IMG/VR virus record: IMGVR_UViG_3300009873_000007
Span: 1-64,000 of that record
Source: a virus
Taxonomy: Duplodnaviria; Caudoviricetes
DNA length: 64,000 nucleotides
Strand: one strand, 5' to 3'
Shown here: in pieces, positions 4,322 to 59,098 of the stretch
How the letters are laid out: each line of letters starts with the position of its first letter
Numbering within the stretch: the stretch's first letter is position 1
Notes under the pieces: model-generated
The model's input: the letters and a program-made list of their open reading frames with translations, nothing else
Told to the model about the DNA's origin: nothing
Database searches by the model: none
Position numbers and translations under genes: made by a program

Positions 4322-4537
4322 ATGGTTGAACCTGTTGGCTTTACCGACCGTGAGATCGAAATCCTTGAGTACATGAGTGAAAACACCGAAGCAACCTACT
4401 CAGACGTAGCGAAAGCGTTGTATATCAGCATAGCCACAGCACGCACGCATCTTGTCAGGATGCGCAGCAAGGCGAACGTACACAAAACTGCTGCATTGAT
4501 TATAGGATGGCGAGAACACCGCTGGGGGCATAAATGA
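4322..4537 (+). CDS. LuxR-type HTH protein
   Basis: FTDREIEIL...VAKALYISIATARTHL..MRSK. Confidence 0.8.
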   Translation: MVEPVGFTDREIEILEYMSENTEATYSDVAKALYISIATARTHLVRMRSKANVHKTAALIIGWREHRWGHK

Positions 4538-7823: not shown

Positions 7824-7852
7824 TTGACATATTAGAAAGAAGTCTTTATAAT
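7824..7852 (+). promoter_or_regulatory. strong rightward sigma70-type promoter
   Basis: TTGACA-17 nt-TATAAT exact consensus. Confidence 0.85.
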
Positions 7853-8076: not shown

Positions 8077-8364
8077 ATGTTTGTACACCTAGACCCACAC
8101 GGCCACATCGTCAGCATCCCGACCATCAACAGCGGGTGGGCGTATTGCAAGGTGTGTGGATGCTACTACAGCCGAGGTCAATTGCGATCCACCGTGACCG
8201 ATGCGGATCGCCAGCAGGATTTGGCCGATGCGATGGCGATCCTGGCGGCGATTGACGCCAATCCTAGTCTCAACACGACCTGGCAAGGCTTGACCTATGC
8301 CGAGCAAGTGCAACAAGCGAGATTGTATGAATCAGCTAACACCGAAACAACGCCAGATCGTTGA
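8077..8364 (+). CDS. hypothetical protein with CxxC
   Basis: AGGAGG SD; first gene after the leader. Confidence 0.7.
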   Translation: MFVHLDPHGHIVSIPTINSGWAYCKVCGCYYSRGQLRSTVTDADRQQDLADAMAILAAIDANPSLNTTWQGLTYAEQVQQARLYESANTETTPDR

Positions 8365-8530
8365 CCTGATTTTAGCCGGCCACACCTCATACAAGGAATT
8401 AGCACGATTGTGCGAGGTGAGTCCACGAACGATACACGCACATCTGGCCGGAGCGTACAAGAGGCTAAACGTACATAAGATGACACAGTTGGTGGCAGTA
8501 ATCGCAGGAGGCACAAATGGACATGATTAA
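8327..8530 (+). CDS. LuxR-type HTH protein
   Basis: LTPKQRQIVDLI...ELARLCEVSPRTIHAHLAGAYKRLNV. Confidence 0.75.
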   Translation: MNQLTPKQRQIVDLILAGHTSYKELARLCEVSPRTIHAHLAGAYKRLNVHKMTQLVAVIAGGTNGHD

Positions 8531-17958: not shown

Positions 17959-17987
17959 TTGTCAAGCGGCATAAATCGTGTTATGAT
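17959..17987 (+). promoter_or_regulatory. putative late promoter
   Basis: TTGTCA-17 nt-TATGAT. Confidence 0.6.
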
Positions 17988-17999
17988 AGAGGTGCAGGT

Positions 18000-18194
18000 G
18001 TGGAGCAGGGATACAAAGACGAGCGAATGAACCGAATCGCTCAACAATTGTTGGATAGGCTCATTCAGGATTTGACCAAAGAACTGCTGCCACTCCTGAA
18101 AAGTGATTGTCGATTTAAGGTTGAGATCAACAGTGGTAGCGAAAGAACCGTTGAGAAGCCGATAGGATTTGCTATCACGAAGCATATCAACTAA
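18000..18194 (+). CDS. small leader protein
   Basis: GAGGT SD, GTG start; lies between the promoter and a terminator. Confidence 0.6.
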   Translation: MEQGYKDERMNRIAQQLLDRLIQDLTKELLPLLKSDCRFKVEINSGSERTVEKPIGFAITKHIN

Positions 18195-18221
18195 CTGAAT
18201 AGCTGCGTAAACGGTAAAGCG

Positions 18222-18268
18222 GGCGCACGTAATGGGGATCACTCCCTGATACGTGCGCCTTTTGTTTT
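18222..18268 (+). terminator. intrinsic terminator ahead of the late genes
   Basis: GGCGCACGT...ACGTGCGCC followed by TTTTGTTTT. Confidence 0.8.
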
Positions 18269-20030: not shown

Positions 20031-22421
20031 GTGAGTGTACGATTTGATGCGTCAGGAGATAATTTAGCACTAGCAAGCGCACCATCTGGCGACTTCGCCA
20101 TCATGGGTTGGTTTTACATCAGTGTGGATCGCAATGACTATTCCACAATGATGTATATGGGGCCAACCACCAACAATTTTGCACAAACATTTTGGGTTGG
20201 CACAGGCTCGGATGGGGTAACGCTAGAGGTATTTTCGCTCCAAAATTCAACGCCACGATTTACCGCTGCCACACTATCGACGGCAACGTGGTATCACCTG
20301 GCGCTAGTCGGCAACACCGGATCAGGCCAGACGCTAACGCTCTATGTCAACGGCGCATCGAGTGGAAGCGGAACAAGCGGCGCAGGCACATACAACGCCG
20401 GCCAAACGAAATTCGGCGCTGACAACGAAGGCACAACCGAGCCGTTCAATGGCCGAGCGGCGTACATTAAAATTTTTAATTCGGCGCTGACCATCACCGA
20501 TGTGCAAGCCGAGATGAACACCATCCGGCCACATCGGGCGACCTGGGCATGGCTGCCGGTTTTCCCTGGCGCAACAGAACGGGCCAGAGATTACAGCGGC
20601 AATGGTCGCAATTTCACCGAAAACGGCACGCTGACGGACGAGGCAGAGCCGCCAGTTTCACATGGCGGGCAGACGTGGTTTCTGCCATTCTATGTGGCGA
20701 CGGGTGGCGATTTATCGGTATCGGTCAGCGACTCTATCACAGTAAGCGAGTCGGTATCTCGCCTGCTTGAATCGTACATTAACAAATCAGAGAGTATTGA
20801 AGTTACCGAAGCGGTATCGGCGGAACTGATCCACCTGGCATCGGTGAGCGATAGCGTTGCTGTCGCAGAGTCGGTGACTGTGGATGTACCGTTGACCGTA
20901 TCGGTTAGTGAATCGGTGACGGTGGCTGAGTCGATTATCCGGCATGTTGAATCCTACATCAGTGTAGCCGATTCTGCCACGGTCACAGACACGCCAGCAT
21001 TGACGCTAATCCATCTGGTAAGCGTGGCTGATAGTGTGGAGGTCAGCGAGTCGGCTAGTGCGTTGCTCGTCTCCGATGTCAGTGTCACCGATGGTATTAC
21101 GGTTGCAGAGACAGTCACCCGGCATCTGGAATCGTATGTCAGCGTCAGCGAGTCGGTTAATGTTGCTGAGTCAATCGAGCGGCTAGTAGAGTCCTACATC
21201 GGCGTAGCTGATAGCGCATCGGTCGCTGAGGCTGTTAGCGCCACATTGATTCATCTGGTCAGCGTTGAGGATACTGTCAGTGTTGCTGAGGTTATCACAC
21301 GGCTACTAGAATCCTACATCAACGTTAGCGATTCTATTACCGTTGGTGAGTCGGTATCACTATCGATTGTATCGGCGGGCGATCTGACTGTCAGTGTCAG
21401 CGATGAAATTGCGGTAGCCGAAGCGGTATCACGGTTAGTCGAATCATACATCAATGCCAGCGACGCGATAGAAGTCACTGAGACGATTAGCCGAACGCTG
21501 ATCAGTGATGTATCGGTAGCCGATAGCATCACGGCTGATGAAACAGTAGCAGCAATCTTGGTGCATCTACCGAGTGTGGCAGATAGCATCACGGTTGATG
21601 AATCGCTATCGCTGGACGTGCCAGTATCGGTATCCGTTGCCGATGCTATCACCGCTAGCGAATCTATCACTGTTGCCGTGTTGGATAGCGGTACACTGGC
21701 GATTAACGTATCTGACTCCGTAGCGGTCGCTGAGGCGGCTACAGTCAGTTTCGATGCCGAGATCGCAGTAAGTGACAGTGTAGCGGTTTCTGAAGCGTCT
21801 AGCGCCGTTCTGGTGAGTTTAGTCAGTGTCGCAGATTCTATCGCCGTCGCTGAGTCGATTGTCGTCGCCACGCTGATTGACATGGTGGCCGCCGACGCTA
21901 TCACGGTCGCTGAATCAACCACACTGACGATTGATACTGAGATCGTAGCGGCGGAATCAATCACGGTCGCAGAATCCACATCGGCGCTCGTTGAATCACT
22001 CGTCAGCGTTGCAGACAGCATCACAGTAGCCGAGTCTGTGGAAGTCGCTACATCGCTGGCTGTGGCTGTCAGCGAAGCGATTACGGTCAGCGAGTCAATT
22101 ACGCTAGTCGTTGTGGTGGAAACAGCGGTTAGTGACTCGGTAACGGTTAGTGAAGCGGTCGCTATCACTGTTGGCGCTGCGGGCCAGATTGAGATCAGCG
22201 TCAGTGAGTCAATCACGGTCACCGAGTCTGTAACGGTACTGCTACCTGACCCGCTGGCGATCAGCGCCAGTGATGCAATCACCGTGAGTGAGTTAGTAAC
22301 GGCGTTCATTTTGGGCGCTGTCCTAATAGATGTCACATTGTCTGATAGTGCGGTCACCAGGCTATCACTATCCGATTCAGTTGTCACAAGGTTAGTTTTG
22401 TCAGACAGTTCTAGATCATAG
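20031..22421 (+). CDS. LamG/ConA-like head plus ~25 acidic 20-aa repeats; putative fibre
   Basis: WYHLALV...LYVNG...FNGRAAYIKIFNSALT; then DS[IV]xVxES[VI] repeats. Confidence 0.85.
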   Translation: MSVRFDASGDNLALASAPSGDFAIMGWFYISVDRNDYSTMMYMGPTTNNFAQTFWVGTGSDGVTLEVFSLQNSTPRFTAATLSTATWYHLALVGNTGSGQTLTLYVNGASSGSGTSGAGTYNAGQTKFGADNEGTTEPFNGRAAYIKIFNSALTITDVQAEMNTIRPHRATWAWLPVFPGATERARDYSGNGRNFTENGTLTDEAEPPVSHGGQTWFLPFYVATGGDLSVSVSDSITVSESVSRLLESYINKSESIEVTEAVSAELIHLASVSDSVAVAESVTVDVPLTVSVSESVTVAESIIRHVESYISVADSATVTDTPALTLIHLVSVADSVEVSESASALLVSDVSVTDGITVAETVTRHLESYVSVSESVNVAESIERLVESYIGVADSASVAEAVSATLIHLVSVEDTVSVAEVITRLLESYINVSDSITVGESVSLSIVSAGDLTVSVSDEIAVAEAVSRLVESYINASDAIEVTETISRTLISDVSVADSITADETVAAILVHLPSVADSITVDESLSLDVPVSVSVADAITASESITVAVLDSGTLAINVSDSVAVAEAATVSFDAEIAVSDSVAVSEASSAVLVSLVSVADSIAVAESIVVATLIDMVAADAITVAESTTLTIDTEIVAAESITVAESTSALVESLVSVADSITVAESVEVATSLAVAVSEAITVSESITLVVVVETAVSDSVTVSEAVAITVGAAGQIEISVSESITVTESVTVLLPDPLAISASDAITVSELVTAFILGAVLIDVTLSDSAVTRLSLSDSVVTRLVLSDSSRS

Positions 22422-29714: not shown

Positions 29715-29924
29715 ATGACGCAACCGGTATTGACTAACGTAAAAAAATCTACTATACTTATTGTCAACGAAGCGGCTGAAACCGTAACGCTATCGCTGGA
29801 CTATATTAAGATGCGCCACGATCAAGCGGTGGCAGAGGCGCAATTCTGGCGTAAGCTGATGGGGTTGGAACCGTTGCCAACCGGAGCAATGCAGCGTAGG
29901 ACAGCGAAGCAGGTGAATCGTTAA
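29715..29924 (+). CDS. hypothetical protein
   Basis: ORF; start uncertain because a promoter lies inside its 5' end. Confidence 0.5.
   Translation: MTQPVLTNVKKSTILIVNEAAETVTLSLDYIKMRHDQAVAEAQFWRKLMGLEPLPTGAMQRRTAKQVNR
29730..29758 (+). promoter_or_regulatory. sigma70-type promoter
   Basis: TTGACT-17 nt-TATACT. Confidence 0.65.
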
Positions 29925-29928
29925 TTAT

Positions 29929-30060
29929 GTTGTCTGTAGCTCAGAAGCAGAGCAGTCGCCTACCGGCGATGATACACGCAACGTCAGGTTGACATCTGGC
30001 CGAGAAAACGTGTAACCGCAAGTCAAAGCGGTGGCGCTAGTGCAAATCTAGCTGGACAGC
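29929..30060 (+). ncRNA. tRNA-like RNA with expanded central region
   Basis: Acceptor-like stem, TA-GCTC/GAGC D arm, GCTAG-TGCAAAT-CTAGC T arm; no canonical anticodon loop or CCA. Confidence 0.55.
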
Positions 30061-30076
30061 CTCAAAAAATTAAATA

Positions 30077-30139
30077 TTACGCCTAGAGCGTTCCGTTGAT
30101 AAGGCGAGCATCGATTTAGTTCGATGTCTCGCCTTTTTT
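30077..30139 (+). promoter_or_regulatory. antiterminator/terminator element, copy 1
   Basis: CGCCT-AG-AGCG-ttc-CGTT-GATA-AGGCG overlaps terminator stem AAGGCGAGCATCGA/TCGATGTCTCGCCTT plus T6. Confidence 0.75.
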
Positions 30140-35581: not shown

Positions 35582-35605
35582 CAATAAGTCGCTTAACAAT
35601 AACAA

Positions 35606-35720
35606 ATCACGCCTAGAACGAACACGTTGACAAGGCGACATGGTAGCCTAAAGGCTGCTTTGTCTTCCTTTGATGCAGGCGACAGGTAGCAAATCGCTAC
35701 TATGTCGCCTGTTTCATTTG
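35606..35720 (+). promoter_or_regulatory. antiterminator/terminator element, copy 2 (two downstream hairpins)
   Basis: CGCCT-AG-AACG-aaca-CGTT-GACA-AGGCG, then two related AGGCGACA-GGTAGC hairpins. Confidence 0.7.
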
Positions 35721-40823: not shown

Positions 40824-41443
40824 CGGCAACTGCACAGAATTTTGCATTTTACCAGGGTGAGACGAAAACGTTGGAGGTGCTTGTCACCGATGGCGATAAT
40901 GAGAATGCGCCGTTTTCACTGACCAACGTAATCGAAATCGACTGGGGTGCATGGGTTGACATCAACACTCGCATCCTCACCAAAAAATTGACGCTAGGCG
41001 CACCGGATAATATTGTTCGGTTTAGTTCTGCCGGTACAGATGATGCGCTGCGAATGAATTTCACCGTTACCGATACGCAAATCCTGAACGGTGATTACTA
41101 CCACGAATGTCGCATTATCGATAGTAGCGGTAATCAAGACGTAATTTTCATCGGCACAATGACGATTGGTGACAGTCGCACGGTGCAACCATCGATGCTC
41201 GGTTCGGAGACTATCACGGTTACGGAAGCGGTAACAGTATCGGTGCAAGCGACCTCCACACCGTCTATCAGCGTGAGTGATAGCGTAACAGTGACGGAAG
41301 CGGTAACGCTGATGATTGAATCATACATCGTTGTAAGCGATGGCGTGAGCGTGGCCGAGTTGATTGAGTTGATCCTGGTGTCACTGGCGAATGTGAGTGA
41401 GTCGATTACGTTGGCCGAGGAAGTGACGGTGGCGATTGAGTAA
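40820..41443 (+). CDS. BppU-like domain plus four acidic 20-aa repeats
   Basis: QGETKTLEV, YYHECRIID..G; DSVTVTEAV repeats. Confidence 0.7.
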   Translation: MTATAQNFAFYQGETKTLEVLVTDGDNENAPFSLTNVIEIDWGAWVDINTRILTKKLTLGAPDNIVRFSSAGTDDALRMNFTVTDTQILNGDYYHECRIIDSSGNQDVIFIGTMTIGDSRTVQPSMLGSETITVTEAVTVSVQATSTPSISVSDSVTVTEAVTLMIESYIVVSDGVSVAELIELILVSLANVSESITLAEEVTVAIE

Positions 41444-46766: not shown

Positions 46767-46769
46767 GTG

Positions 46770-46951
46770 TGGTAGAATGAAAGTCGTTGCGGCCTCGACA
46801 GCGAACGCAGGCAGGTGAATACACCATCGAGGCTTACACTGGCGTCGGTGTGGATGGACACACAGGGATTGACCAACACGCAAACATCCTTTGAGGTGTA
46901 CCCGTAGGTGACGGTTTCAGCAGCCTACTAGCCGGATACCGGCACGCCAGT
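46770..46951 (+). ncRNA. highly structured intergenic RNA
   Basis: TG-N-TAGAAT extended -10, a three-way junction and a multi-arm junction closed by ACTGGCGT/ACGCCAGT. Confidence 0.55.
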
Positions 46952-46961
46952 ATAACTACAT

Positions 46962-47027
46962 ATCACGCTTAGAACGTTCTCGTTGACAAAGCGACAGTAT
47001 CCCATCGGGGGTATTGTCGCTTTTTTT
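46962..47027 (+). promoter_or_regulatory. antiterminator/terminator element, copy 3
   Basis: CGCTT-AG-AACG-ttct-CGTT-GACA-AAGCG overlaps GCGACAGTATCCC/GGGGGTATTGTCGC plus T7. Confidence 0.78.
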
Positions 47028-58999: not shown

Positions 59000-59098
59000 C
59001 TACACCCTACGCTCAATCCTCACGGGTCTTGCAATTTGCCAAACATCACGATTCCGAAACCTCACACGATAACTGCGACGCCTGCGACGTTGTACCAT
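59000..59098 (-). CDS. 32-aa arginine-rich peptide
   Basis: AAGGAG SD; MVQRRRRRSYRVRFRNRDVWQIARPVRIERRV. Confidence 0.6.
   Translation of the reverse strand: MVQRRRRRSYRVRFRNRDVWQIARPVRIERRV

Follow-up and report, generated by a model that had tools for sequence, protein, structure and literature searches.

The late gene region of an uncultivated phage contained a genuine, conserved and structured RNA element, which occurred three times on the + strand and was tied at each place to the terminator in front of a late operon. The stretch of DNA that was analysed (hereafter the window) covered positions 1 to 64,000 of an IMG/VR virus record that is 73.7 kb long. The most likely function of the element is predicted to be factor-dependent antitermination, to which we assign a probability of about 0.5, and when a variant that resembles the nut sites of phage lambda is counted in, this general function is reasonably probable.

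The + strand of the window carried a gene block that spanned 0 to 53 kb and encoded nucleotide metabolism, replication, and then head and tail proteins, with the large tail proteins encoded after the tail tube gene (Table 1). The window did not encode a phage RNA polymerase gene, and its early promoters were perfect matches to the sigma-70 consensus. No cultured relatives were present among deposited phage records, no relatives of the 910-aa gene behind copy 3 were found among viral contigs, and the host could not be assigned from MAG contigs. Many diverged direct repeats with a period of 60 nt were located within a 796-aa ORF (20700-22300), and one copy was located in a second tail gene (41200-41330).

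The initial annotation had reported a motif in three copies, and the motif was present at all three places on the + strand, whereas 100 shuffled sequences contained 0 matches. No further copies were detected in the whole 73.7-kb record, and an exact-pattern scan of viral, metagenome and genome contigs returned 0 motif matches. The three copies could be aligned over 48 columns. The A-rich box came first, followed by the outer helix (5 bp), AG, the inner helix (4 bp), a variable loop of 3-4 nt, GAYA, and the 3' arm of the outer helix. The A-rich box added 14 nt of conservation 5' of the hairpin that the earlier description had lacked. The features which that description did include, namely a covarying outer stem, a fixed AG/GAYA internal loop and a variable apical loop, were all seen in the alignment: the outer stem was CGCCT/AGGCG at sites 1 and 2 and CGCTT/AAGCG at site 3, the internal loop was AG/GAYA in each of the window's copies, and the apical loops were TTC, AACA, and TTCT. 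The two sides of the internal loop were unequal in all copies (2 nt vs 4 nt between the sub-elements). In isolation, the motif folded as a 5+4 bp hairpin with energies of -7.8 to -9.7 kcal/mol across the copies. A search of Rfam, which had been set beforehand as a refuting check, matched no family; it gave 0 matches at the gathering score across the whole window, and relaxed thresholds around the three sites yielded chance-level matches only (E of 2 or more).

Table 1. Positions of the element, its terminators, candidate regulators and neighbouring genes in the window.
Feature	Position	Strand	Description
GerE/sigma-region-4-like HTH genes	4322-4537, 8297-8530		Stand-alone proteins (71 and 77 aa), early region
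Self-contained unit	17959-18266		Extended -10 promoter, 64-aa ORF (18.0 kb), strong terminator without the motif
Terminase	25299, 25819	+	
Portal, then MuF-like protein		+	Between terminase and protease/scaffold-like gene
69-aa ORF	29715..29924	+	Directly 5' of copy 1; 64-69 aa family; candidate trans factor
Sigma-70-like promoter	29730..29758	+	TTGACT-17-TATACT; ~350 nt 5' of copy 1; conserved in L030
Motif, three copies	30066-30112, 35596-35643, 46952-46999	+	
Copy 1	30066..30106	+	A-rich box 30066-30079, outer 5' arm 30080-30084, AG 30085-30086
Copy 1, inner part		+	Stem 30087-30090 with 30094-30097, loop 30091-30093, GATA 30098-30101
Copy 1, outer 3' arm	30102-30106	+	
Terminator 1	30102..30139	+	Stem 30102-30134, then T-run; first five bases are the 3' arm of copy 1
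405-aa protease/scaffold-like gene	30153/30159 (start codon)	+	Behind copy 1
Major capsid	32326	+	
Copy 2	35596..35637	+	A-rich box; outer arms 35610-35614 and 35633-35637; inner stem 35617-35620 with 35625-35628
Site 2 composite	35637..35719	+	Second hairpin 35637-35664 with weak T-rich tail, then linker
Site 2 strong terminator	35676-35711	+	5' arm repeats the arm sequence; T-rich tail to 35719
Tail tube gene	35731 (start)	+	Behind copy 2
Extended -10 promoter-like site	46770..46778	+	In the gap ~190 nt 5' of copy 3
Copy 3	46952..46993	+	A-rich box; outer arms 46966-46970 and 46989-46993 (C-G to U-A); inner stem 46973-46976 with 46981-46984
Terminator 3	46988..47027	+	16-bp stem, then T-run; base common to the 3' arm of copy 3
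910-aa gene (tail-tip)	47039 (start)	+	Behind copy 3
32-aa Arg-rich ORF	59000-59098	-	12 arginines, strong AAGGAG ribosome site, intrinsic terminator behind

Covariation was assessed on six close copies from three phages, which are related sequences with few independent compensatory events, and the support that it appears to give is real but modest. Paired cells amounted to 96% across these copies, compared with 33-50% in slid controls. Three pairs had changed on both sides (C-G/U-A, U-A/C-G with U-G intermediates, and A-U/G-C), and the observed covariation score was reached in only 2 of 500 shuffles. The departures from pairing consisted of five G-U, plus two G-A at the loop-closing pair (in two copies). 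That all departures except those at the loop-closing position were G-U fits an RNA of the + strand rather than a DNA palindrome bound by a protein. Moreover, the 3' arm of the terminator had changed along with the outer helix in copy 3 and in two related loci, L030 and L134.

Diverged forms of the element were located at the same gene position in related phages (L030, L122, L031, L035/L123, L134, and L135), a conservation at orthologous positions that, together with the covarying stems, bears out the proposal of a structured + strand RNA. L030, L122, L031, and L035/L123 were reached through homologues of the 405-aa protein, which was 75% identical in L030. These loci kept the A-rich box, the outer helix (CGCC/GGCG or CGCTT/GAGCG) and the arm shared with the terminator. 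The inner stems varied in sequence yet paired (AACG/CGTT, AGC/GCT, TGCG/CGCA, and GTTG/CAAC). A covariance model built from the window's three copies ranked the same sites as the best non-self matches in 274 kb, and across 274-604 kb of relatives the orthologous elements were the best non-self matches of the covariance models. L134, which is a mosaic and has a head module of another type, was found through a homologue of the tail-tube protein. One copy of the element stood before a head gene of this phage and a second before its tube gene, and each had an AG/GANA loop and an arm in common with its terminator. A distant clade (40-46% protein identity) had the same arrangement and its own compensatory case (TTGCT/GGCAA in L055). 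An A-rich box and a small hairpin without the shared arm were present in L119, L044, L126, and L068. The first covariance model gave no matches in relatives whose capsid was 47-69% identical, and these relatives lacked an intergenic gap at site 2. A terminator directly 5' of the protease/scaffold-like gene was common across the family, and the sequence ahead of it had several layouts.

Some further features of these terminators were recorded. GTAACA or TAACA occupied the terminator apical loops of L030 (2110-2125), L031 (7945-7965), L035 (9670-9690), L119 (9935-9955), and L134 (9953-9965), and was not found in the apical loops of the window's own terminators. Genes of the homing-endonuclease type (T5orf172/MUG113, HNH_3) on the - strand were inserted between the terminator and the protease/scaffold-like gene in L123 (718-1305) and L124 (593-1339).

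A strong intrinsic terminator was found behind each copy of the motif, with T-runs at 30134, 35712, and 47021, and the + strand of the 53-kb gene block had only one other strong terminator, at 18259. The 3' arm of the hairpin was also the base of the terminator 5' arm at sites 1 and 3, and an arm shared in this way was seen in seven copies of relatives, including L030, L122, L031, L035, and both copies of L134. When the downstream sequence was added to the fold, the terminator state won. It was more stable than the antiterminator state by 6-16 kcal/mol where the arm was shared, and stopping is thus expected to be the default. The terminators ahead of the major capsid and tube genes had energies of -22 to -25 kcal/mol. 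The initial annotation held that the hairpin and the terminator exclude each other in every copy; this was the case at sites 1 and 3, where enforcing the upstream hairpin cost 8.0 and 6.4 kcal/mol, and failed at site 2, where the cost was 1.6 kcal/mol. In a per-sequence test, the complementarity of the upstream region to the terminator arm was not above chance.

At site 2, the minimum-energy fold held the motif hairpin, a second hairpin that abuts the motif, and the strong terminator together. They can coexist because the arm sequence is present twice and the terminator draws on the second copy. L135 carried the site-2 composite nearly unchanged: the intergenic region was 90% identical, compared with 71-74% for the two flanking genes, and all substitutions in the structured part were in a loop, the linker or a bulge. 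Site 2 would have to work somewhat differently, either via the proximal weak terminator or via an effect on the polymerase.

The distance from the T-run to the start codon was only 12-19 nt at each site, which leaves no room for a promoter. The capsid, tube, and tail-tip genes can thus be transcribed only if the polymerase gets past the terminators, a situation that calls for control of read-through in one form or another. Promoter-like sites on the + strand of the window were few, and full -35/-10 matches that scored at least 10 of 12 numbered three, one of them being the sigma-70-like promoter before copy 1. Copy 2 had no promoter-like site close to it, and this speaks for action of the element at the terminator rather than at a promoter. 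The promoter-like sites before copies 1 and 3 would predict short terminated leader RNAs, by analogy with the PR'-tR' region of lambda. The regions upstream of the copies had no significant similarity to one another, that is, no shared leader.

The sequences ahead of the copies had additional properties. A non-coding stretch of 142 nt (29925-30066), which separated the 69-aa ORF from copy 1, folded somewhat better than its shuffles (z -2.3); it was absent from L030 and matched nothing in Rfam. A 186-nt non-coding leader ran from the extended -10 site to copy 3 (46767-46952) and was dissimilar to the stretch before copy 1. In a distant clade, L098, L104, L115, and L102 had a TTGACC-17-TATAAT promoter, a hairpin and a terminator within ~110 nt before the protease/scaffold-like gene, and this leader was compact and PR'-tR'-like. 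Several simpler identities of the motif and its surroundings were rejected. ARAGORN found no tRNA upstream of copy 1. A promoter for a T7-like phage RNA polymerase was discarded, given that no such polymerase was encoded and that the early promoters followed the sigma-70 consensus. A plain sigma-70 promoter on either strand was also discarded, as the would-be spacer was conserved, only the hairpin loop varied, and the -35 part was not kept in orthologues.

In the predicted mechanism, the motif would be a cis-acting RNA that is transcribed within the late mRNAs and forms a weak two-part hairpin, in which an AG/GANA internal loop joins an outer helix of 5 bp to an inner helix of 3-4 bp. The RNA alone would prefer the terminator, and transcription would stop just before the head, tail-tube, and tail-tip operons. 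A putative factor would recognize the conserved internal loop and the A-rich box and hold the hairpin closed; the terminator would then lose the five base pairs next to its U-run, and RNA polymerase would read on. We infer that termination occurs at these sites and that a factor binds. This factor may be the syntenic 69-aa protein, the product of the 32-aa Arg-rich ORF, or a factor of the host. Several results count against this mechanism, namely the coexisting folds at site 2 that were conserved in L135, the relatives without a shared arm (L119, L044, L126, and L068), the complementarity test at chance level, the small number of independent compensatory events, and the absence of an RNA-binding protein family from the record.

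This mechanism resembles that of the RAT elements recognized by BglG, SacY and LicT, which are also weak imperfect hairpins with conserved internal-loop bases, are present in several copies per regulon, and have termination as the default. In RAT elements the 3' part of the hairpin is the 5' arm of the terminator, and this was found at sites 1 and 3, in L030, L122, L031 and L035, and in both copies of L134, although not at site 2, where the folds were not mutually exclusive. On the other hand, the sequence and shape of the two elements differ, RAT elements control sugar operons rather than a phage late operon, and the record lacked a CAT domain. The targets of ANTAR proteins (AmiR, NasR, and EutV) likewise involve an antiterminator hairpin that is stabilized by a protein and overlaps a terminator, but they consist of two tandem hexaloop hairpins, whereas a single hairpin with a loop of 3-4 nt was found here and no ANTAR domain was encoded. 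By analogy, the element appears RAT-like in its working at sites 1 and 3 and nut-like in its layout of box and hairpin, and it is probably a member of neither group. The initial claim of a new antitermination system goes too far, because the logic is a known one, of the RAT type or the nut type, although the sequence family is new.

The record was searched for proteins that could act on the element, and no RNA-binding protein family was found in it. Searched at E up to 1, the 73.7-kb record contained no CAT domain (PF03123); by estimate the record is incomplete, and a protein of the host may serve instead. The ANTAR domain (PF03861) and Q-type proteins (PF06530 and PF03589) had no match in the record. 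By its position, the 69-aa ORF may be the best-placed candidate: a gene of its 64-69 aa family lay directly 5' of the element in all ten aligned loci with the layout of A-rich box and hairpin, including the mosaic L134. The ORF matched no known family, and its protein was predicted to fold as a beta-hairpin and two helices (pLDDT 71), a model for which no fold match was found. The two candidates put forward in the initial annotation were not linked to the element. Of these, the 32-aa Arg-rich ORF had no family match or detectable relatives, and the 64-aa ORF at 18.0 kb had no family match either, a search of 5.8 billion proteins giving just two homologues with 70-75% identity.

Other loci of the family had an alternative layout, in which one or two palindromic hairpins were combined with a TACAT-type box and a terminator. 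A gene for a stand-alone GerE/LuxR-type HTH protein of 63-73 aa was located upstream of the palindromic hairpins in at least seven loci; it was directly adjacent in L036, L043, L047, L049, L120, and L121, and two ORFs away in L045. This gene occupied the position where the window's group had the 64-69 aa gene and the motif. From this arrangement, it looks as though cassettes that consist of a regulator and its signal are exchanged at one genome position.

Three other explanations were weighed against antitermination by a clamped hairpin. The box and hairpin may form a nut-like loading site, which would recruit a phage factor and possibly host factors onto the elongating polymerase and make it resist the next terminator or terminators, with the shared arm as a by-product of compaction and not a mechanism. 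As in the boxA and boxB of lambda, a linear box was conserved among relatives and was accompanied by a small hairpin that differed between phages, several copies stood before terminators, and the genome contained a small Arg-rich ORF, here with a strong ribosome site. Such a loading site would also account for site 2 and for the relatives without a shared arm. However, N-type peptides read the apical loop of boxB, whereas the present element has a free apical loop and a fixed internal loop; a loading site has no need for the three-way covariation in which the terminator 3' arm takes part; and the element abuts or overlaps each terminator and does not act at a distance as nut does. No N homologue was identified, and the Arg-rich ORF, besides its lack of detectable relatives, is presumably too short to hold the known polymerase-contact regions of lambda N. 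A nut-like site is considered rather unlikely. The possibility that the hairpin has no switching function, and is instead an accessory to the terminator or to mRNA ends (for instance a signal for processing or stability, or a barrier between operons) with late genes expressed by constitutive partial read-through, is similarly improbable. It agrees with the dominance of the terminator state in every fold, with the non-significant complementarity test, and with the fact that no factor was identified. Nevertheless, it does not explain why unpaired internal-loop bases and the A-rich box were conserved across three phages while the stems covaried, nor why the whole site-2 region was more strongly conserved than its flanking genes, and the strong terminators described above stand before the major capsid and tube genes, which have to be highly expressed.

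The remaining explanation places the signal in the DNA, as an imperfect inverted repeat with a TTGACA-like hexamer that is bound by a small GerE/sigma-region-4-like HTH protein, which would be either a late activator or an antiterminator loaded on DNA in the manner of Q or AlpA. Two stand-alone GerE-type proteins were encoded in the window, the second of them ~450 nt behind a perfect TTGACA-17-TATAAT early promoter (7824-7852), and many relatives had a GerE-type gene directly before palindromic hairpins and a terminator at the same position. Small antiterminators that load on DNA and act on promoter-proximal terminators are known, such as AlpA of Pseudomonas (PMC7969949), and this type of antitermination appears to be the closest analogue on the protein side for a DNA-level signal. 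The promoter-like sites 190-350 nt before copies 1 and 3 and the late structural genes behind a terminator are further likenesses to AlpA and to the Q system at PR'-tR' of lambda. In contrast, Q and AlpA load at a DNA site in the promoter, whereas copy 2 had no promoter nearby, the signal covaried as RNA, and no Q-type protein was found. The repeat was also asymmetric in all copies, the changes in its arms were compensatory or G-U, as RNA pairing requires, and no consistent -10 element was found at a working distance from the TTGACA-like hexamer. Furthermore, the loci with this motif type adjoined the 64-69 aa gene and not the GerE gene. A DNA-level signal is regarded as doubtful.

Antitermination by a clamped RNA hairpin remains the preferred reading. 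In its most specific form, it would be an undescribed late-gene switch. A new small phage protein (of the 64-69 aa family, or the 32-aa Arg-rich peptide) would clamp the AG/GANA hairpins ahead of the late operons and so disarm the terminators one by one, and in relatives the cassette would be replaced by a GerE-type regulator and the palindromic sites that go with it; this full version is tentative.

To our knowledge, the timing of late genes in tailed phages is understood in only a few models, which are lambda N and Q, Mu C, P2 Ogr, and T4 gp55. In the phage group described here, the capsid, tube, and tail-tip genes are reachable only through strong terminators. If a small phage protein or peptide does clamp the hairpin, the two would form a compact new RNA-protein antitermination pair that could be useful as an orthogonal genetic switch, and phages would be seen to swap whole cassettes of regulator plus signal at one genome position.
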